Assembly: GCA_036381495.1 (NCBI GenBank)
Contig: DASVCS010000059.1
Span: 2,352 to 66,351 of the forward strand
Direction: 5' to 3'
From: Longimicrobiales bacterium
GTDB lineage: Bacteria; Gemmatimonadota; Gemmatimonadetes; Longimicrobiales; RSA9
Length of the DNA stretch: 64,000 nucleotides
Made by a program: the position numbers and the translations under genes. The first letter of the stretch is position 1, and the number at the start of each line of letters is the position of its first letter. Under the pieces are notes generated by a model, which saw only the letters and a program-made list of their open reading frames with translations, had not been told where the DNA came from and ran no database searches. Below are positions 10,053-47,156 of the stretch, piece by piece.

Positions 10053-10754
10053 CTACCCGCCCGCCGGCGCGCCGGCCCTCGGCGTCGGGGCGTCGCTCTC
10101 GATCCAGCCGTCGCGCAGTTCGACGATGCGGTCGCCGTAGGCCGCGTTCTCCTCCGAGTGCGTGACCTGGATGATCGTCGTCCCCTGCCTGTTCAGCCTC
10201 TTGAACAACTCCATGATCTCGCGGCCCTGCGCCGAGTGCAGATTGCCGGTCGGCTCATCGGCCAGGATCAGCTTGGGATCCGCGATCACGGCGCGCGCCA
10301 CGCCCACGAGCTGCTGCTGGCCGCCCGAGAGCTGGTTCGGGAAGAGATCCTTCTTCCCCACGATCTGGAAGCGGTCGAGCGTGTCGGCGACCAGCGACTG
10401 CCGCTCCTTGCGCGGCACGTTCCGGTACGAGAGCGGAATATCCAGGTTCTCGGCCACGGTCAGCCCGTCCAGCAGGTGGTACTGCTGGAAGACGAAGCCG
10501 ATGTACTGCCGGTTCAACTCCGCGCGCTTCTTCGGCTTCAGCGTGTGCACGGCGTGCCCGAGCAGGTAGTACTCGCCCGACCAGGCGTGGTCCAGCAGAC
10601 CCAGGATACTGAGGAGCGTGGTCTTCCCCGCGCCCGATGGCCCCATGATCGTCACGAACTCGCCTTCGCGGATCGTGAGGTCGATGCGCTGGAGCACGAA
10701 GGTGCGGCCGGCGGGGGTCTCATACGCCTTGCTGATGTTCCTGAGCTCGATCAT
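10053..10754 (-). CDS. ABC transporter ATP-binding protein (MacB/LolD type), ATPase-1
   Basis: Walker [10 protein letters not shown], signature LSGGQQQ, Walker [13 protein letters not shown]. Lies 43 nt upstream of ADOP-1. Confidence 0.9.
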
Positions 10755-10761
10755 CCTGCCT

Positions 10762-10833
10762 CTCTTCCGGAGCTGCTCTCTTCCGGACGTGGTTTCCGCT
10801 CTTGCGGACCTGGTTTCACTGTTTCGCGCTCTT
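10762..10833 (+). repeat. decaying tandem reiterations of the outer part of the 32-nt motif
   Basis: Units are ctcttccggagctg, then ctcttccggacgtggtttccg, then ctcttgcggacctggtttcactgtttcgcg, directly followed by the full copy. The last unit supplies the purine-rich stretch before the ATPase-1 ATG. Confidence 0.8.
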
Positions 10834-10865
10834 GCGGACCTGGTTTCACTTTTTCGATTCGTCCC
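10834..10865 (+). repeat. 32-nt ADOP-spacer motif, copy 1 (start-proximal arm of module M1)
   Basis: GCGGACCTGGTTTCACTTTTTCGATTCGTCCC, one mismatch to the consensus. Confidence 0.95.
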
Positions 10866-10991
10866 AAATCGACACCGCGCCGGGTCGCGTCACCCGCGGC
10901 ACGTCGAGGATCGGCCGGCGCCCATCCGGGCGCCGCAGGTGAGCGGGTTCGATCCGGTCGCCCGCGTCTGCGCGGGTCCTCACCGCCTCCT

Positions 10992-11090
10992 CTAGATGCG
11001 GTTCGCCCGTGGGTTCAGGCCCGCGCGGCCGCTCGCTGCGCTCGGTTCGCGGACACGTACGACTCCGAAGCGACGCGACAACCGCTCTAA
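10992..11090 (-). repeat. ~98-nt CTAG-bounded repeat element, copy 2
   Basis: The reverse complement reads TTAGAGCGGTTGTCGCGTCGCTTCGGAGTCGTACGTGTCCGCGAACCGAGCGC...GAACCGCATCTAG. The first ~60 nt are nearly identical to copy 1; the rest is clearly related. Confidence 0.6.
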
Positions 11091-11218
11091 GCTTCCGGCG
11101 ACACGCCTATCGCCGCCGTCAGACGCACCGCGCGACCGTGAGTCGCGCGGATGAGCGGTCCAGCGGGCGAATGCGCGGCCTGCATCCGGGGAGAAGCGTG
11201 CCAGCGGCGCGTTCTGCA

Positions 11219-11247
11219 ATAATATCTTGTACACCAATCAGTTACAA
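11219..11247 (-). promoter_or_regulatory. sigma-70-type promoter candidate (TTGTAA-17 nt-TATTAT) inside module M1
   Basis: On the minus strand, TTGTAA (11242-11247), an exact 17-nt spacer and TATTAT (11219-11224). A conspicuous AT-rich island, oriented toward ATPase-1/ADOP-1. Confidence 0.45.
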
Positions 11248-11491
11248 TGCCCTGACGCCTGCGTCGTCACGCGTTCGGGTGACCGCCGTCGGGACAGCGT
11301 GTCCCAATAGCGGACGGTCCGTTCCACCGGATGCACCGCGTGGCAGCGCCGTGCCGACGATGCCGATCATACCGTGGTCGCGCGCGATCCTGAGTTGCGG
11401 TGGAGCGGGCATGGCTGCATCCCGTGCGCTCCTCGCATTCCGGCCCCGAACGGTCACCGCCCCATCGGAGCGGCCAACCGGACGACTCGAT

Positions 11492-11523
11492 GGGACGAAT
11501 CGAAAAAGTAAAACCAGGTCCGC
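11492..11523 (-). repeat. 32-nt motif, copy 2 (stop-proximal arm of M1)
   Basis: The plus strand reads GGGACGAATCGAAAAAGTAAAACCAGGTCCGC, an exact reverse complement of the consensus with W=T. Confidence 0.95.
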
Positions 11524-11573
11524 CTACTCCAGGTCCGCCTACTCCAGGTCCGCCTACTCCGCCGTCCGCCTAC
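11514..11573 (-). repeat. 15/16-bp tandem repeat x4 at the ADOP-2 stop codon / motif junction
   Basis: The minus strand reads GAG TAG GCGGACGGCGGAG TAG GCGGACCTGGAG TAG GCGGACCTGGAG TAG GCGGACCTGGTTTTAC. Each unit fuses the last gene nucleotides (GAGTAG) to the first 10 nt of the motif. Confidence 0.85.
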
Positions 11574-14038
11574 TCCGCCCGCAACGCCTCCATCGGGTTC
11601 ACGCCGGCCGCCCTGCGGGCCGGGATGTGGCTGGCGAGCAGCGCGACGGCGGCAAGGATCAGGGCGACGCCGGCGAAGGTCAGCGGATCCGTCGCGCTGA
11701 CCCCGTAGAGCAGACTCGAGACGAACCGCGTGAGCGCGAATGCGGCGGCCAACCCGATGGCGACGCCGAGCAGCGCGAGTGTGAGCCCCTGGCGCAGGAT
11801 CATGCGCAACACGCTGCCGGACTCCGCGCCGAGCGCCATACGGATGCCGATCTCGCGCGTTCGCTGGCCGACCGAATACGCCATGACGCCGTAGATGCCG
11901 ACGGCGGCGAGCAGGAGGCCGAGCAGCCCGAAGAGCGTCGTCAGCACGGCACCGATCCGCTGTGTCAGCAGGTCATCGCCGATCAGGTCGGTCAGCGGCG
12001 TGAGGTCGAGGAGCGGGAGCGCCGGGTCGAGTGCGTGGACCGCGTCGCGCACCGCGCGGACGGTGGCGCCGGCGTCGTCTTCGGTCCGGACGGCGAGCAC
12101 CAGCTTCGAGCGGTAGTTCTGCTCCCGCGCGACGAAGATGAACGGCTCCGGCTCTTCACGCAAGGAACTGTACTTGCCATCCGGTACGACGCCGACGACC
12201 AGGAACTCCGCCGCCTCCGCTCCATCGGCCTGGCCGCTGATGATCTGAAACGCGGAGTACGCCTGGACGAATCGCTTCCCGATCGGATCCTGGCCCGGCC
12301 AGAAGTGCTCGGCCATGGTCTGGTTCACGATCGCGGCGTGCGGCGCGTCTTCACGGTCCGCAGTCGCGAACGTGCGCCCGCGCAGCACCGGGATGCCCAT
12401 GGTCCGGAAGTACTCCCCACCGACGACGTTGGCGTGGATCAACTCACCTTCGTCCTCGCCGGCTCCGGCCGGCCGCACGCGCAGCGCCTCCTCACCGGGG
12501 CCGAGGGGCACGCCGACGGAGAAGCTCGCGGATCGCACGCCGGGCACCTGGCGGACGCGCTCGAGGATGCGATCGTAGAGTTGCCGGCCGCGCGGTTCGT
12601 CGTAGCGCTGGCGTTGCAAATCGATCGAGGCGACCCACACGTCATCCGGGTCGAATCCCGGATCGATGCTGAGCGCGTGCTGGAGCGCCCGCAGGAAGAG
12701 GCCGGCCGCGACGAGCAGGAGCAGCGACATGGCGACCTGACCGACGACGAAGCCGTGGCGCAGCCACGCGCTCGGACGCCGGCCGCTGCGCCCCCCGTCC
12801 CTCGCCGGGACCAGTTCGGGCCGTGACGCGCGCAGCGCGGGGATGAGGCTGAACCCGAGCCCGGTCACGAGCGAGAGGAGCAGCGCGAAGCCCAGTACGC
12901 GGCCGTCGGGCGCGAGGTCGAGCGTGACCGGTACCGGCCAGCGGAACGCGAGGAGCAGGTCGGTGAGCCAGACGGCGAGCAGTACGCCGCCCGCGCCGCC
13001 GAGCAGGAAGAGGAGCACGCCCTCGGTCAGGAGTTGCCGGACGATCCGCGCGCGCCCGGCGCCGATCGCCGCTCGGATCACGACCTCGCGCTGGCGTCCC
13101 GCGGCGCGCGCGAGGAGCATCCCGGCCACGTTCACGCCCGCGATCAACAGCACGAGCGAGGTCGCGACGGCGAGCATCGTGAAGAAGCGCAGGAACGAAC
13201 CCTGGCGCGACGTCGGGATCCGGCTCAGCGGGTGCAGCTCGGCGTTCGTGTACTCGAGCGGACCGCCCAGCGCCTCGCCGACCTGCCGCAGCCCCGCGCT
13301 CAACTCGGCCTGCGCCCGCTCGATCGAGATCCCCGGGCGCAGGCGGCCGATCGCTTCCAGCCCGAACCACATCAGGCTGTAGAGACGGCTGTTCGGCACC
13401 ACTCGCTCGCGCAGCGCGAGCGGCGCCCAGAGCCCGGGCGCCCGGTCGATGCCGGTACCGGTGAACGAGGCCGGCGCCACCCCCACGACCGTCGCCGGCC
13501 GTCCGTTGAGCCGCACCGTCCGTCCGACGATCGATGGGTCCGCACCGAAACGCCGCCGCCACAGGCGATCGCTCAGGACGACGCCGGCCGTGGCCGCACC
13601 CCGGCGATCATCGGAAGGCGCCAGCAAACGCCCCAACGCCGGCCGGATTCCCAGCACGCGGAAGTAGTCGCCGGAGACGAACGCGGCCAAAACCTCCTCC
13701 GCGTACTCCTCATCCCCGAAGCTGAGCTGCGCGTCCGCGCGCGCAGCCAGCTCCGCCACGGCGCGGCCCCGCTCCCGCAACGCCTCGAAGTGCGGGAACG
13801 ACAGCGCGAATGGACGGCTCTCGCCCCCGCCGCCGAACGCGCCCAACGCCTGCACGCCGACCAGCCGGTCCGGCTCGCGCACCGGCAGCGGCCGCAGCAC
13901 CAGCGCGTTCACGGCCGTGAACAGCGCCGTGTTCGCACCCACCCCCAGCGCGATCGTGAGCACCGCGACCAACGCGAAGCCGGGGCGACGGAGAAGCATC
14001 CGGCCGGCGTAGCGGACGTCCTGGAGCAGCGTGTGCAT
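11570..14038 (-). CDS. ADOP-2: double-FtsX ABC permease
   Basis: [40 protein letters not shown] ... PARRAAGVNPMEALRAE; 822 aa. Confidence 0.9.
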   Translation of the reverse strand: MHTLLQDVRYAGRMLLRRPGFALVAVLTIALGVGANTALFTAVNALVLRPLPVREPDRLVGVQALGAFGGGGESRPFALSFPHFEALRERGRAVAELAARADAQLSFGDEEYAEEVLAAFVSGDYFRVLGIRPALGRLLAPSDDRRGAATAGVVLSDRLWRRRFGADPSIVGRTVRLNGRPATVVGVAPASFTGTGIDRAPGLWAPLALRERVVPNSRLYSLMWFGLEAIGRLRPGISIERAQAELSAGLRQVGEALGGPLEYTNAELHPLSRIPTSRQGSFLRFFTMLAVATSLVLLIAGVNVAGMLLARAAGRQREVVIRAAIGAGRARIVRQLLTEGVLLFLLGGAGGVLLAVWLTDLLLAFRWPVPVTLDLAPDGRVLGFALLLSLVTGLGFSLIPALRASRPELVPARDGGRSGRRPSAWLRHGFVVGQVAMSLLLLVAAGLFLRALQHALSIDPGFDPDDVWVASIDLQRQRYDEPRGRQLYDRILERVRQVPGVRSASFSVGVPLGPGEEALRVRPAGAGEDEGELIHANVVGGEYFRTMGIPVLRGRTFATADREDAPHAAIVNQTMAEHFWPGQDPIGKRFVQAYSAFQIISGQADGAEAAEFLVVGVVPDGKYSSLREEPEPFIFVAREQNYRSKLVLAVRTEDDAGATVRAVRDAVHALDPALPLLDLTPLTDLIGDDLLTQRIGAVLTTLFGLLGLLLAAVGIYGVMAYSVGQRTREIGIRMALGAESGSVLRMILRQGLTLALLGVAIGLAAAFALTRFVSSLLYGVSATDPLTFAGVALILAAVALLASHIPARRAAGVNPMEALRAE

Positions 14039-16513: not shown

Positions 16514-16544
16514 GGGACGAATCGAAAAAGTAAAACCTGGTCCG

Positions 16545-16545
<1 letters not shown>
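16514..16545 (-). repeat. 32-nt motif, copy 3 (solo copy S1)
   Basis: The plus strand reads GGGACGAATCGAAAAAGTAAAACCTGGTCCGC. Its last base is the first base of the ADOP-4 stop codon (cta at 16545-16547). No inverted partner in this 73-nt spacer. Confidence 0.95.
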
Positions 16546-21431: not shown

Positions 21432-21463
21432 GCGGACCAGGTTTTACTTTTTCGATTCGTCCC
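21432..21463 (+). repeat. 32-nt motif, copy 4 (start-proximal arm of M2)
   Basis: GCGGACCAGGTTTTACTTTTTCGATTCGTCCC, exact. Lies 30 nt from the ADOP-5 ATG. Confidence 0.95.
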
Positions 21464-21775
21464 ATATTGGCACAGGCCTGGCGCATCCGGTGACGTGCCG
21501 ACCGGACATACCGGTCCGGCGCGGGACGGACGCACTTCGGACCTGCGCGGCCGAGTGCGAGTGCGGCCGGGTCGCAGTCGCGGCGCGATCCGGGCTCGAC
21601 GCCGCGCAGATGCGCTGCGCGATATGCAGGGTCCCTTGCTCCCGCGCACGCGCTCACGTGGCGGCACGCAGCTCCGGACCGGTGCGGGTTCCGCCTGGCG
21701 TCCGGTGCCACGAACCAGTGCGTCGAGCCTCCGCTGCCAGACCGATTTCGGGATCAGCCAGAACCCTGTCGATCC

Positions 21776-21807
21776 GCGGCGAATCGAAAAAGTAAAACCT
21801 GGTCCGC
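21776..21807 (-). repeat. 32-nt motif, copy 5 (stop-proximal arm of M2)
   Basis: The plus strand reads GCGGCGAATCGAAAAAGTAAAACCTGGTCCGC, with two mismatches at the inner end. Lies 29 nt from the ADOP-6 stop. Confidence 0.9.
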
Positions 21808-27272: not shown

Positions 27273-27320
27273 AGTCCTCTCACTCGTCTGGCGGACCTGG
27301 CTTTCGTTACCGCGTGGCAA

Positions 27321-27360
27321 ACCTGCCGTCCGGCGGACCTGCCTGCCGTCCGGCGGACCT
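27321..27360 (+). repeat. 20-bp tandem duplication covering the outer end of motif copy 6
   Basis: acctgccgtccggcggacct / gcctgccgtccggcggacct. The second unit runs into the full motif. Confidence 0.85.
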
Positions 27361-27384
27361 GGTTTTACTTTTTCGATTCATCCC
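27353..27384 (+). repeat. 32-nt motif, copy 6 (start-proximal arm of M3)
   Basis: GCGGACCTGGTTTTACTTTTTCGATTCATCCC, one mismatch. Confidence 0.95.
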
Positions 27385-27717: not shown

Positions 27718-27748
27718 GGGACGAATCGAAAAAGTAAAACCTGGTCCG

Positions 27749-27749
<1 letters not shown>
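27718..27749 (-). repeat. 32-nt motif, copy 7 (stop-proximal arm of M3)
   Basis: The plus strand reads GGGACGAATCGAAAAAGTAAAACCTGGTCCGC, exact. Its last base is shared with the ADOP-8 stop codon (cta at 27749-27751). Confidence 0.95.
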
Positions 27750-35235: not shown

Positions 35236-35396
35236 ATGTGGCGTAGAGATCCAAATCACTGCCACAAAACAACATGCGGCCCTGCGGGCGCCCGGCGCCG
35301 CCCCGGCGACCGTCCGGTTCCGGGAATCGCCGTCCCGGACGCGGACAATGTCCGGCGAACGGGGTGGTCGCGTTCGCGGAGCTGGTCTTCGTATTC

Positions 35397-35428
35397 GCGG
35401 ACCTGGTTTTACTTTTTCGATTCGTCCC
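35397..35428 (+). repeat. 32-nt motif, copy 8 (start-proximal arm of M4)
   Basis: GCGGACCTGGTTTTACTTTTTCGATTCGTCCC, exact. Confidence 0.95.
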
Positions 35429-35719: not shown

Positions 35720-35751
35720 GGGACGAATCGAAAAAGTAAAACCTGGTCCGC
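35720..35751 (-). repeat. 32-nt motif, copy 9 (stop-proximal arm of M4)
   Basis: The plus strand reads GGGACGAATCGAAAAAGTAAAACCTGGTCCGC, exact. Lies 4 nt from the ADOP-11 TGA stop (35756-35758). Confidence 0.95.
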
Positions 35752-43309: not shown

Positions 43310-43341
43310 GCGGACCAGGTTTTACTTTTTCGATTCGTCCC
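43310..43341 (+). repeat. 32-nt motif, copy 10 (start-proximal arm of M5)
   Basis: GCGGACCAGGTTTTACTTTTTCGATTCGTCCC, exact. Confidence 0.95.
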
Positions 43342-43603
43342 ACAGCGTCACCTGGCTGGCCGATCCGGTAGTGCGCCAACCGGACGTATCCGTGGAACGA
43401 GAGGCGCACGGCTTCGGACACGTGCCCCGGATCGCACAGCCGCCCCGCGACCCGCATTGGCCGCCACGCGAATGCTTGATCCACGCTCGCGTGCCGGCAC
43501 GCACGTCCGGCCCCGGCGCCGCCCTGTGGACCGCCCCACAACCAGGTGGGTCGAGCCGCCGCCAACCGGCTGATATCGGGATAAGCCAATGCCCTGGCGA
43601 TCT

Positions 43604-43635
43604 GGGACGAATCGAAAAAGTAAAACCTGGTCCGC
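43604..43635 (-). repeat. 32-nt motif, copy 11 (stop-proximal arm of M5)
   Basis: The plus strand reads GGGACGAATCGAAAAAGTAAAACCTGGTCCGC, exact. It directly abuts the ADOP-14 TGA stop (43636-43638). Confidence 0.95.
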
Positions 43636-46119
43636 TCATTCCGCCCGCAGCGCGACCATCGGGTCCACGCGCGCGGCACGCCGCGCAGGCAGCCAGCTCG
43701 CGAACCCCGCCACGCCGGCGAGCAGCGTAGCCGCCGCGATGTACGCGATCGGATCCGTCGGCTCGATGCCGAAGAGCATGCCGCGCAACAGTCGCGTCAG
43801 CAGGAGCGCGGCGCCGGTCCCGGCGACGAGCCCGGCCAGGACCAGTCTCAGAGAGCCGGCGACGACGAGCCGCTCGACCTGCCGCGCCTGCGCGCCGAGC
43901 GCGATGCGCACGCCGATCTCCCCCGTGCGCCGCGTGACGACGTAGGAGACGACGCCGTAGAGCCCGATCGCGGCGAGCGCGAGCGCCACGCCCGCGGCGA
44001 GCGCCAGGAGCGCGAGCGTGAAGGACTGGCGGCTCATCGAGCGGTCCACGATCGTCTGCATCTCGTCGACGTTGGCCAGCGGGATCGCGGGGTCGAGGTC
44101 CGCGACGATGCGGCGGATCGCCGGGAAGAGCGACGCCGGGTCCGCCAGCTCCGTGCGCACGACGAGGTACCGCGCACTGCCCCAGCCGCCCGAGCCGGGG
44201 GCGGGCACGATGGGATAGTAGATCGCCACCGCCGGCGCCTCTTCCACCGAACTCGCGTACACATCGCCGACCACGCCGACCACCCGGTAGAACGGCGCGC
44301 TCCGGCTGCCCGGCGCCACGCGTTTGCCGATCGGGTCCTCGCCCGGCCAGAAGCGCTCGGCGAAGGCGCGGCTGACCACCGCAACCGGTTCACCACTGCC
44401 GCTGTTGTCGTCGTCCCTGAACGTGCGTCCGGCGAGGAGGGGGATCCCGAGCGCCTCGAAATAGCCGGGCGACGTCGGCGTCTGGCCCGCGCAGGTGGTC
44501 AGGCCGGCGTCGTCGAGGCGAGCATAGACCTCACGGTCCGCGAAAGCCTGCGTTGTACAGCCGTAACCGCCGCTGAACGGCATGTCGTTCGACACGCCCG
44601 CCGCGGTCACGCCCGGTAGCGCGCGCACGCGCTCGAGCATTGCGCGGTAGAACTGCCAGCGCGCCGCGTGCCCGTCGTAGCGGCCGGATGGAAGATAGAG
44701 CTCCATCGTGAGCACGCCCTCCGGATCGACGCCTGGATCGACGGCGCGCAGACCGCGGAAGCTCTCGAGCAGCAGCCCCGCGCCCACGATCAGGATCAGC
44801 GCGAGCGCGACCTGGCCGACGACGAGGGCCGACCGCACTCGCTGCCGCTCGCGGCCGACCGTGGCGGAGCGGCCGCTTTCGGCAAGCGCGGCAACGCCAA
44901 CGGACCCGCGCTGCCGCAGCACGGCCACGCCCGCGAGCACGACCGCGATGACGAGCGACACGCCGAGCGCGAAGCCGAACACGCTCGCGTCGACCCGGAT
45001 CGCGTCCAACCGCGGGATCGCTGCAGGCGCGATGGCGACGAGCCACTCGACGCCCCAGGTGCCGAGCAGTAGCGCCACAGCGCAGCCGGCCACCGACAGC
45101 ACCACGCTCTCGGCCAGGCAGTGCATCGCGATCGCCGCTCGGGACGCGCCGAGTGCCGCACGCACCGCCAGCTCGTGACGCCGCGCCTCGATCCGGACCA
45201 GGAACAGGTTCGCCACGTTCGCCGCCGCGATCAGCAGGACCAGCCCGACGGCACCAAGCAGGATCCACAGATTCCGGGCGACATCGCCGACCACGTCGTC
45301 TTTCAGCGAACGCAGCACCGTGTGCAGCCCGGACCGCTCGAACATGCGCGCGCTGTAGATGTCCGGGTACGCCTCCATCAAACCCGGCCTCAATGCGTCC
45401 AGCTCCGCCTGCGCCGACTCGAGCGTCGCGCCCGGCGCGAGCCGCGCGATCCCCGACACCGTGTGGCTGCCCAGCCAGGTCGGATCGAGCTGGTACGGAA
45501 TCCACACGTCCGTCCGCAGCCGGCCGAACCTGCCACCCGGCTCCGGCAGCTCCGTCCCCGGCGCCATCACCCCGATGACCTCGATCGGGATTCCGTTCAT
45601 CTCGATCGCACGGCCGATCACGTCGGGATCGCCGCCGAACTGCCGCTGCCAGAAGCCGTGGGAGAGCACCGCCACCGGCGCCCCGCCCGGCGAATCGTCC
45701 CGGTCATCGAAGAGCCGCCCGAGCGCGGCGCGAGCGCCCAGAATGCGGAACACACTCGCAGTCGCAATCGCCGCGCGGCCGCGCACCACCTCGCCCGGAC
45801 CGGCGAGGTTCACTCCGCCGACCCGGTACATCCCCATCGCTTCCAGCGAGCGCGCATGCTCGCCGAAGTACAGGTACTGCGCCGGCGAGAGCTGCCACTC
45901 CACATCCGCGCCCACCCCCGGCACCGGATTCGCGATCCGCACCAGCCGCTCCGCATCCGGGTACGGCAGCGGATCCAGCACCACGGACTCGAGCACCGCA
46001 TAGATCGCCGTCGTCGCGCCGATCGCGAGCGCGAGCGTCAGCACCGCCACGACCGCGTAGCCGGGACTGCGACGCAACCCGCGCAACGCGTAACGCAGGT
46101 CCTGGAAACCTGTTGCCAC
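43636..46119 (-). CDS. ADOP-14: double-FtsX ABC permease (start uncertain)
   Basis: VATGFQDLRYALRGLRRSPGYAVVAVLTLALAIGATTAIY ... [17 protein letters not shown]. There is no ATG at the paralog-aligned position, so the in-frame GTG at 46119 is proposed. The track ORF extends to 46320 through a G/R/E-rich low-complexity stretch. Confidence 0.8.
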   Translation of the reverse strand: MATGFQDLRYALRGLRRSPGYAVVAVLTLALAIGATTAIYAVLESVVLDPLPYPDAERLVRIANPVPGVGADVEWQLSPAQYLYFGEHARSLEAMGMYRVGGVNLAGPGEVVRGRAAIATASVFRILGARAALGRLFDDRDDSPGGAPVAVLSHGFWQRQFGGDPDVIGRAIEMNGIPIEVIGVMAPGTELPEPGGRFGRLRTDVWIPYQLDPTWLGSHTVSGIARLAPGATLESAQAELDALRPGLMEAYPDIYSARMFERSGLHTVLRSLKDDVVGDVARNLWILLGAVGLVLLIAAANVANLFLVRIEARRHELAVRAALGASRAAIAMHCLAESVVLSVAGCAVALLLGTWGVEWLVAIAPAAIPRLDAIRVDASVFGFALGVSLVIAVVLAGVAVLRQRGSVGVAALAESGRSATVGRERQRVRSALVVGQVALALILIVGAGLLLESFRGLRAVDPGVDPEGVLTMELYLPSGRYDGHAARWQFYRAMLERVRALPGVTAAGVSNDMPFSGGYGCTTQAFADREVYARLDDAGLTTCAGQTPTSPGYFEALGIPLLAGRTFRDDDNSGSGEPVAVVSRAFAERFWPGEDPIGKRVAPGSRSAPFYRVVGVVGDVYASSVEEAPAVAIYYPIVPAPGSGGWGSARYLVVRTELADPASLFPAIRRIVADLDPAIPLANVDEMQTIVDRSMSRQSFTLALLALAAGVALALAAIGLYGVVSYVVTRRTGEIGVRIALGAQARQVERLVVAGSLRLVLAGLVAGTGAALLLTRLLRGMLFGIEPTDPIAYIAAATLLAGVAGFASWLPARRAARVDPMVALRAE

Positions 46120-46349
46120 GATCTGACCCGTGCGCTTCCGCTCCTTTCGTTCCACTTCGACCGGCCCGGACGCTCCATCCCGGAGTCCGCCGCGCCGCCC
46201 CCGTCTCGCTCGCCTCTCCTCCCGCTCGACCGAACGGCCTGCCCCGCCGCCGGCACCCGCGCCCGCCGTTCCGCCCTTGCCCCCTATCGTCAGCTCCATG
46301 GCCGATCTCGCTATGGACACCCTCCGACCGGCGAGGTTATCCTTCGCCC

Positions 46350-47156
46350 ATGGACGCCGAGACCCGCGAACGCTTCGACCAGCTCACCGCTGCTTTGCAA
46401 GCGGCGGAGGCGCGCTGGAACGAACGCTTCGACCAGCTCGCCGCCTCGCTCGAAGCGGCGGAGAAACGTTGGGACCAGCGTTTCCAGGAGGCCGAGGCGC
46501 GCTGGGACGCGCGTCTCCGGGAAGCCGAGGCGCGTTGGGATGAGCGTCTCCAGGAAGCCGAGGCACGCTGGGATGCGCGTCTCCGGGAGGCCGAGGCACG
46601 CTGGGATGAGCGTCTCGATAAGTTCGCCGCGATGGTCGCCCGGGGGTTCGAGTCGGAGGCGGAGCAGGCGAACCATCGCTTCGCCCGCATCGAAGAGCGG
46701 TTCGCCCGCATCGAAGAGCGGCTCGACCGCATCGAGGAGCGCCTCGACCGCATCGAGGAGCGCCTCGATCGCGTGGAGGCACGCCTCGACGGCGTGGAGA
46801 CGCGCCTCGATCGGCTCGAGCACCGCGTCGAGGCGATGGACGTCAAGTTCACCGAGCAGTTCATCGCGGTCGATGAACAGTTCCGGACGCTGAGCATACG
46901 TCTGACCGGGTTCGAAAACCGTGTGACGATGACGGTGACGGACACCCGCAAAGAAGTCGAGATCCTCGCGCAGCACGTCGCGTCACTCGACGCGTTGTTC
47001 GTAGGGCTCGCCGACCGGGTGAGCAAGCTCGGCGGACGCGTCGGCGTGATCGAGGAAGGCATGGCGGATCTCAGCGGCCGGATCGACGGGCTCGCCGACG
47101 ACATGCGCCTGCGGTTCCGCCTTGTGGATGAGCGGTTGGCGGTCCTGGCCACCTGA
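46350..47156 (+). CDS. coiled-coil repeat protein of unknown function
   Basis: 268 aa from ATG 46350 (GAGG 13 nt upstream) with high GC3. Contains 11-residue repeats (EAEARWDxRLx) followed by heptad repeats (RIEERLD). It is the only plus-strand gene inside the array. Confidence 0.65.
   Translation: MDAETRERFDQLTAALQAAEARWNERFDQLAASLEAAEKRWDQRFQEAEARWDARLREAEARWDERLQEAEARWDARLREAEARWDERLDKFAAMVARGFESEAEQANHRFARIEERFARIEERLDRIEERLDRIEERLDRVEARLDGVETRLDRLEHRVEAMDVKFTEQFIAVDEQFRTLSIRLTGFENRVTMTVTDTRKEVEILAQHVASLDALFVGLADRVSKLGGRVGVIEEGMADLSGRIDGLADDMRLRFRLVDERLAVLAT
46488..46619 (+). repeat. 33-bp tandem repeat x4 inside the coiled-coil gene
   Basis: gaggccgaggcgcgctgggacgcgcgtctccgg and three near-identical units, encoding EAEARWDARLR / EAEARWDERLQ. 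Confidence 0.85.
46686..46832 (+). repeat. 21-bp tandem repeat x7 inside the coiled-coil gene
   Basis: cgcatcgaagagcggttcgcc and six progressively diverging units, encoding RIEERFA / RIEERLD / RVEARLD heptads. Confidence 0.85.

Follow-up and report, generated by a model that had tools for sequence, protein, structure and literature searches.

How did the junction between a permease gene and a dispersed DNA motif come to be repeated in tandem directly behind the stop codon of the gene? This question is raised by the 3′ end of the gene ADOP-2 in a stretch of 64,000 nucleotides from a Longimicrobiales bacterium (contig DASVCS010000059.1, positions 2,352 to 66,351), the whole of which is referred to here as the window; coordinates given without a contig label are positions in it. 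The gene ADOP-2 (11570-14038, − strand) encodes a duplicated MacB/FtsX-type permease of 822 aa that matches TIGR03434 (ADOP, E=1e-268, 893.7 bits) as well as the Pfam families MacB_PCD and FtsX, and its C-terminus, ..NPMEALRAE*, is typical of the paralogs. The stop codon is the TAG at 11572-11570 (− strand), preceded by GCG TTG CGG GCG GAG. The reiterated junction extends over 11518-11579 (− strand) and is composed of two 16-nt units, GGCGGAGTAGGCGGAC (11579-11564 and 11563-11548), and two 15-nt units, CTGGAGTAGGCGGAC (11547-11533 and 11532-11518), after which the remainder of the motif, CTGGTTTTACTTTTTCGATTCGTCCC, reaches position 11492. Tandem Repeats Finder (TRF) reported the array as 11514-11576 with a period of 15, 4.1 copies, 93% matches and a score of 103.

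A preliminary description of this locus, made from the sequence alone, had presented the array as a stop codon/motif junction tandemly reiterated four times. The junction GAGTAGGCGGAC was indeed found four times, but exact-repeat analysis resolved two unit types, so that the idea of a single unit copied four times had to be given up. The 16-nt unit joins 10 nt of the gene end to 6 nt of the motif (GCGGAC) and is present in 2.0 exact copies with 0 microhomology, while the 15-nt unit joins 5-7 nt of the gene end to 8-10 nt of the motif and is present in 3.13 exact copies with a 2-nt GG microhomology. Given these two unit types, at least two separate duplication events must have taken place in addition to expansion. 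The ADOP-2 protein is unaffected, since translation ends at the first TAG (11572-11570). The array of about 60 nt is below read length and arrays of the same kind occur in independent assemblies, which makes an assembly artefact unlikely. The array is also far beyond chance, as tandem repeats with a period of at least 10 and a score of at least 70 were found at 1.05% of 1613 other gene 3′ ends. The array is a genuine scar of duplication, situated where a small mobile element has its outer tip.

The motif itself is the 32-nt terminal inverted repeat (TIR) of a mobile-element family, designated family 1. Copies of the 32-mer (GCGGACCWGGTTTTACTTTTTCGATTCGTCCC) numbered 11 in the window and 30 in the genome (4.28 Mb in 169 contigs), and most of them form convergent inverted pairs 236-690 bp apart. 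The pair next to ADOP-2, designated module M1 (10834-11523), is a non-coding segment of 690 bp with inverted 32-nt TIRs at both ends. Its end abutting ADOP-2 is the full 32-nt TIR GCGGACCTGGTTTTACTTTTTCGATTCGTCCC (11492-11523, − strand), with 0 mismatches to the 26-nt core, and is of the type that forms the left-hand end of modules M2-M5. M1 lies in the opposite orientation to these modules, and over 73 nt (bases 618-690) it agrees at 88% with the left end of M4 read in reverse. M1 is about twice as long as M2-M5, and its interior shows, at bases 153-254, an 84% match to a module on contig C123. At its other end (10778-10865, + strand), M1 carries a full TIR at 10834-10865, preceded by reiterated junctions of its own. 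Here, a 30-nt unit consisting of CTCTT and the first ~25 nt of the TIR is present in 2.2 copies, together with older, decayed units of 21 nt and 16 nt (TRF: 10792-10856, period 30, score 116; 10778-10817, period 21, score 66). A gene for an ABC-transporter ATP-binding protein (10053-10754, − strand; Pfam ABC_tran, E=3.4e-30) lies directly downstream of M1.

Reiteration at the remaining modules was found at left ends. At the left end of M3 (27322-27384, + strand), an exact 20-nt sequence, CCTGCCGTCCGGCGGACCTG, occurs twice and is followed by the full TIR at 27353-27384. This unit consists of 11 nt of flank and 9 nt of TIR with a microhomology of 0 (TRF: 27322-27361, period 20, 100% matches, score 80), and an older degenerate partial copy of it is found at 27291. 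The left end of M4 (35376-35428, + strand) shows an imperfect 21-nt duplication (TTCGCGGAGCTGGTCTTCGTA / TTCGCGGACCTGGTTTTACTT) before or overlapping the full TIR at 35397-35428, which was seen by eye and is absent from the TRF output. No reiteration was found at M2 (21432-21807; TIRs at 21432-21463, + strand, and 21776-21807, − strand), at the right TIR of M3 (27718-27749, − strand), which begins on the final G of the upstream ADOP stop codon TAG and provides an unduplicated end for comparison, at the right TIR of M4 (35720-35751, − strand), 4 nt past an ADOP stop codon TGA, or at M5 (43310-43635; TIRs at 43310-43341, + strand, and 43604-43635, − strand), whose right TIR abuts an ADOP stop codon. 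A solo TIR overlaps another ADOP stop codon (16514-16545, − strand). Two further tandem arrays in the window, at 46466-46616 (33/66-nt units, 4.6 copies, score 204-239) and 46677-46831 (21-nt units, 7.4 copies, score 142), lie between or overlap long open reading frames at 45121-46976 and are unrelated to the TIR motif.

None of M1-M5 is bordered by a target-site duplication, and within each module the flank at one end is unrelated to that at the other. M1 and the termini gave no match to an Rfam family, and their single-strand folding was no better than that of shuffled sequence (z −1.2 to +1.3). Two ways in which the tip might have been provided by the target were discarded. GCGGACCWGG is not a pre-existing target, as the genome count of this 10-mer outside both TIR families (see below for the second) is at background level, and CCWGG is not a target-site duplication, as the W differs between same-strand ends in M1, M2, M5 and the transposase copy described below. 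The 32-nt motif was not found in 40 relatives, and a 20-mer scan of metagenome and genome contig collections gave 12 matches, all of them chance matches lacking the GCGGACC prefix and the GTCCC suffix. The family-1 TIR sequence is therefore new and lineage-specific.

A candidate enzyme for the activity at the tip was found about 7 kb past the right end of the window. There, a TIR-bounded transposase element (C59:73389-74515, window-equivalent 71038-72164) contains, inside the TIR pair, an intact open reading frame for a RAYT-like Y1/HUH transposase of 327 aa (C59:73464-74447), with the 32-nt inverted arms 43 nt upstream and 37 nt downstream of it. The protein matches NF047646 (REP-associated tyrosine transposase) at E=2.4e-20, with 72.9-75.5 bits against a cut-off of 80, and Pfam Y1_Tnp at E=1.7e-4. 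Its HTH-like C-terminal tail is a weak match to HTH_23 (E=5.7e-4, 20.1 bits, below the 24.6-bit cut-off), and precomputed PF13384 hits are present on several homologs of the transposase. The sole PDB match was E. coli TnpA-REP (4ER8), in which the HUH motif and the region of the catalytic Tyr were aligned, MPNHLHLI pairing with LPEHMHCI and VYTHLNPVRAG with DYIYINPVKHG. This copy is likely the autonomous partner of M1-M5. Sharing its TIRs and its asymmetric subterminal sequence, M1-M5 appear to be its non-coding relatives and are presumably mobile.

A second transposase paralog (C54:18348-19501), 46% identical to the first and matching NF047646 with 91 bits, above the cut-off of 80, is flanked by a different TIR, GCGGACCAGGCCCCGTTTC[CT]CGG.., designated family 2, which has the same first 10 nt (GCGGACCWGG) as family 1. 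Family 2 comprises 25 ends, for example at C3:4252-4437, C77:11162-11372 and C141:64545-64600. Both families occur mostly as inverted pairs and are distributed over 8 or more contigs; each transposase is single-copy, with 20-30 ends being non-autonomous. At C123:4280-4380, two complete family-2 TIR units of about 49 nt stand head to tail (period 49, 85% matches), which is a whole-TIR tandem duplication and not a tip-only stutter.

The preliminary description had further suggested a mechanistically active site at the outer boundary of the motif, and had named as the opposite outcome that similar repeats are equally common at unrelated gene ends. To compare the two, we took as a control 1613 likely gene 3′ ends without the motif and scored repeats with a period of at least 10 within 45 nt of the stop codon. 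Such repeats were present at 3.2% of the control ends at a score of at least 50 and at 1.05% at a score of at least 70. Among the family-1 ends, boundary-spanning duplications were detected by TRF at 5 of 30 (all with scores of at least 72), and at 8 of 30 when three imperfect ones are included; the reiterations at the left end of M4, at C23:9630 and at C105:46284 were scored by eye. For family 2, junction duplications were present at 10 (TRF) to 13 of the 25 ends, many with 100% identical units of 27-31 nt, and the reiterated ends include the upstream end of the C54 transposase itself. These fractions are to be read with the caveat that ends within one genome are non-independent. TRF coverage peaked within −40 to +20 of the outer boundary and was near background elsewhere within ±150 nt; for the aligned family-1 ends, the peak lay at −30 to 0. 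In the whole genome, GCGGACC is present in 21 of 211 high-scoring tandem-repeat loci, and 14 of 108 exact tandem duplications with a period of 10-31 lie at the 55 termini, which make up about 0.05% of the 4.28-Mb genome. With boundary duplications in two TIR families and in other genomes (see below), against 1-3% at gene ends, the proposal of an active boundary is supported.

The family-1 ends differed in this respect according to the base at W, the centre of the palindrome ACCWGGT. Ends of the CTGG variant (GCGGACCTGG) were reiterated in 7 of 8 cases, and CAGG ends (GCGGACCAGG) in 1 of 22. The window ends at 10834, 11523, 27353 and 35397 bear on this contrast. At C105:46015, two 30-nt copies differ at W only.

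Turning to the anatomy of the events, we found that the duplicated segment straddles the boundary and contains 4-12 nt of locus-specific flank together with an initial portion of the TIR, which measures either 6-10 nt or, mainly in family 2, 18-25 nt. GCGGAC is kept in every unit, and the inner breakpoint is clustered. In roughly half of the events (6 of 13 in this genome) there is no microhomology, which argues against classic slipped-strand mispairing. The same feature was considered as proof of an enzyme-mediated join, but this argument is weakened by the exact duplications elsewhere in the genome, a third of which (29 of 89) also have none. A Ku homolog is encoded at C96:18384-18908 (PF02735, 153.5 bits), so non-homologous end joining is probably available; together with the unrelated duplications that lack microhomology, this indicates that a host process may carry out the joining. 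On neither the flank nor the element side did the breakpoints share a di- or tetranucleotide, and a sequence-specific HUH cut at both breakpoints is excluded, as the unambiguous breakpoints share no dinucleotide. The clustering of the inner breakpoint lends no more than loose support to a single specific cut.

To see how far this pattern extends, other genomes were considered. Within the window's own taxonomic family, 25 of 60 other genomes encode homologs of the transposase with 40-49% identity, as do 2 of 200 others sampled across the phylum, and the transposase clade is thus nearly confined to this family. In other genera, the TIRs of the homologs begin with (G)CGGAC(C/G). Transposase-flanking ends in the other genomes carry a repeat at the outer boundary in 11 of 32 cases. 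In one genome of another genus (G024), ends of the TIR family GCGGACGGTGCACCAGTCGCCAGTT show exact 10-18-nt duplications at 13 of 20, and four independent loci have a 16-nt unit made of 8 nt of flank and the 8 nt GCGGACGG, with 0 microhomology. In a genus other than that of the present genome, a transposase homolog at locus L064 (G004:C95, ~106.9-108 kb) is flanked by ..CGGACCAGGTTTTACTTTTTACATTTT.., a relative of the family-1 TIR, which indicates that the AT-rich core is older than the lineage of the present genome. The recurrence of the scars in several genomes supports the view that the TIR tip is repeatedly broken or re-copied DNA.

Based on these results, we consider it probable that the ADOP-2 array is a mutational scar and not a designed signal, left by at least two tandem duplications across the outer tip of the TIR through a nick or stall, re-synthesis and rejoining, followed by expansion; all steps beyond the hot spot at the tip are ones that we infer. 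Judging from the scars, the transposase, or a complex nucleated by it, would bind and nick the DNA a few bases inside the GCGGAC tip, or stall replication there. The free 3′ end would then be extended by 10-31 nt across the boundary, and the strand could be rejoined in a homology-independent manner. Resealing through the phosphotyrosine would be one route to this, and fill-in by Ku/LigD with end joining of a staggered break another. As soon as two copies are present, unequal alignment could add more. The chemistry needed for the nick has a precedent in TnpA-REP, the closest enzyme to have been studied, which cleaves single-stranded DNA near its repeat to give a 5′-phosphotyrosine link and a free 3′-OH and performs strand transfer (PMC8266576). 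Counting against this favoured view, single-strand folding revealed at the termini no significant hairpin of the kind usually recognised by Y1 enzymes. A more specific form of it, which we put forward only tentatively, is that the stutters are the footprint of catalysis by the TIR-associated tyrosine transposase (TIRYT). In that case, the ...GGTCCGC-3′ strand would be nicked 6-10 (or about 20) nt inside the tip, the 3′-OH would be extended, and the phosphotyrosine would reseal onto the extended end, giving a homology-free tandem duplication.

The main rival dispenses with the nick. Replication would be blocked a few bases inside the TIR by the HTH tail of the transposase, by another protein or by transient TIR-TIR pairing on the lagging-strand template, and the nascent end would re-align 10-31 nt upstream and copy the junction again. 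Such a stall with template switching would account for inner breakpoints that are clustered by position without being sequence-specific, for the 1-6 nt of microhomology in some events, and for the excess of reiteration at CTGG ends (7 of 8) over CAGG ends (1 of 22); 30-nt copies that differ only at the centre of ACCWGGT also fit, as a strand switch would flip that base. However, about half of the events have no microhomology that could guide the re-alignment, and no stable structure is predicted at the termini, and we therefore regard it as rather unlikely, if well worth keeping in view. Generic replication slippage would require no element at all: the ADOP end (..GGCGGAGTAG) and the motif start (GCGGAC..) share GCGGA and GG by chance, and an element-independent mini-satellite could arise from them. 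The 15-nt unit is indeed bounded by the 2-nt GG, a GCGGA lies 10 nt upstream of the motif, and 3-4 copies can grow out of an existing duplication without any special mechanism. Slippage nevertheless appears improbable, since the 16-nt unit of the same array has zero microhomology, the same kind of duplication is found at the unrelated flanks CCTGCCGTCCG, TGCGCCGGACA, CCTCTCT, CTCTATCTTGG and CGACTCAC, and junction duplications recur in two TIR families and in at least five other genomes; with only 1-3% of other gene ends affected, the gene-end control largely refutes it.

Two other explanations place the origin of the arrays in selection or in transposition itself. If the arrays were selected as binding sites, the extra GCGGAC copies would act as iterons or operators, bound by the HTH tail of the transposase or by a host protein that regulates the permease operons. 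The presence of GCGGAC in every unit would suit this role, as would the putative HTH-like C-terminal tail, which in this subclass is related to DnaA-box binding domains (PMC6006769). Yet the spacing is anything between 10 and 31 nt, outer copies have decayed (e.g. at 10760-10800), most ends have no extra copy, arrays also stand beside unrelated genes, and the units bear locus-specific flank and hence were formed in place, all of which makes selected arrays quite improbable. Repeated insertion and imprecise excision at one site would leave footprints as partial copies, and every partial copy is indeed located outside the full one, with its inner side cut short. But the local flank is repeated with each partial copy at 100% identity, which is the signature of tandem duplication, target-site duplications are lacking, and the flank is absent from the other end of the element, so that we give this explanation hardly any weight.

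The position of the elements relative to the permease genes was also recurrent. TIR tips of both families lie 0-6 nt (in one case 29 nt) past the stop codons of ADOP/FtsX-type genes. Tips at ADOP stop codons were found in the window at 16545, 27749, 35756, 43636 and 11570, elsewhere in the genome at C57:101372, C109:5074 and C105:46343, and in other genomes at the loci L048 and L027. TIR tips occupy 9-10 of the 50 ends of ADOP/FtsX-type genes in the genome, and such genes make up about 1.4% of all genes. The C-terminal codons of ADOP genes (..CTGCGGGCGGAGTAG) include GCGGA, the pentamer with which the TIR starts, and its occurrence there together with the frequent occupancy suggests a target preference. 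Besides, G-rich repeats of the CTAGGG/GGCTGG hexamer type adjoin some TIR ends and ADOP stop codons (C141:64500-64545, C93:39 and C123:42694).

For the widespread TIR-associated tyrosine transposases, the junction duplications predict a processing site just inside the conserved GCGGAC tip, and de novo junction duplications would be a simple read-out for a TIRYT activity assay. If the reading as a footprint of catalysis is true, the arrays map the cleavage site of the TIRYT class and reveal an undescribed HUH route to tandem repeats beside genes. For the host, the elements locally destabilise the DNA directly behind the stop codons of a large permease gene family, and the stutter at the tip would be a source of length variation that is usable for strain typing and may occasionally alter gene ends.

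Compared with known systems, two classes can be set aside at once. A DDE-type MITE was rejected, as no target-site duplication of fixed length lies beside the TIRs, and a slippage mini-satellite (VNTR) was rejected in view of the strong dependence of the arrays on the position of the TIR tip. Elements of the IS200/IS605 type (IS608, ISDra2) share with the present element the Y1/HUH chemistry, the lack of a target-site duplication and a likely preference for a short target context. They are, however, strand-asymmetric, multicopy whole elements with subterminal hairpins and no TIRs, whereas the element described here has TIRs and single-copy transposases, and terminal stutter is not described for IS200/IS605. 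With regard to mechanism, the repair of paired or staggered nicks in nickase experiments gives short tandem duplications with little or no microhomology, the length of which equals the spacing of the breaks. Those duplications are engineered, whereas the breaks in the present case would have a natural origin and be linked to the tip of a transposon, and the analogy is one of mechanism only.

The REP/BIME/REPIN-RAYT systems (REPtrons) resemble the element in having a single-copy, domesticated-looking Y1 transposase between inverted copies of the repeat that it presumably mobilises, and in that most of the repeats lie close behind genes. TnpA-REP cuts at CT/CA dinucleotides on both sides of its repeat and can rejoin the strands (PMC8266576), and REP clusters reiterated along with flanking DNA are the nearest precedent in the literature for the arrays. 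Unlike REPs and REPINs, which are palindromes with a GTAG (or CGTC) tag, the element has no conserved GTAG and no stable palindrome of 20-40 nt, and it is therefore not a member of this group; the GTAG in the ADOP-2 array is the ..GAG TAG end of the gene and differs at other ends. Another difference is that the reiteration concerns only the first 6-25 nt, not the whole repeat.

The closest agreement is with the TIRtrons (Di Nocera et al. 2013, PMC3733652), which correspond to subclass 2.1 in Quentin et al. 2018 (PMC6006769). In these, Y1 transposases with HTH tails (TIRYTs) lie between TIRs, and the TIRs can be scattered as repeat families of singles, dimers and groups. The C-terminal extensions of subclass 2.1 are HTH_23, HTH_28 or Bac_DnaA_C (PMC6006769). 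Like TIRtrons, the present element encodes a RAYT-like Y1/HUH transposase, about 330 aa long and with a putative HTH-like tail, and has long TIRs at about 40-75 nt without REP hairpins; its TIRs are likewise moderately abundant, dispersed, and often arranged as inverted dimers. The TIRtron motif GGGGWSAS was published for the "majority" of TIRs (PMC3733652, PMC6006769) and hence need not be present in all; it is not carried by the tip GCGGACCW, which agrees with it at 5 of 8 positions. The dimers described here differ from those of described TIRtrons in enclosing a non-coding interior of 236-690 bp. In the literature searched, the works that use the terms TIRYT or TIRtron make no mention of a terminal junction stutter (PMC3733652, PMC6006769), which thus appears to be undescribed. 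Taken together, the element is a new, lineage-specific TIRtron that encodes a TIRYT.
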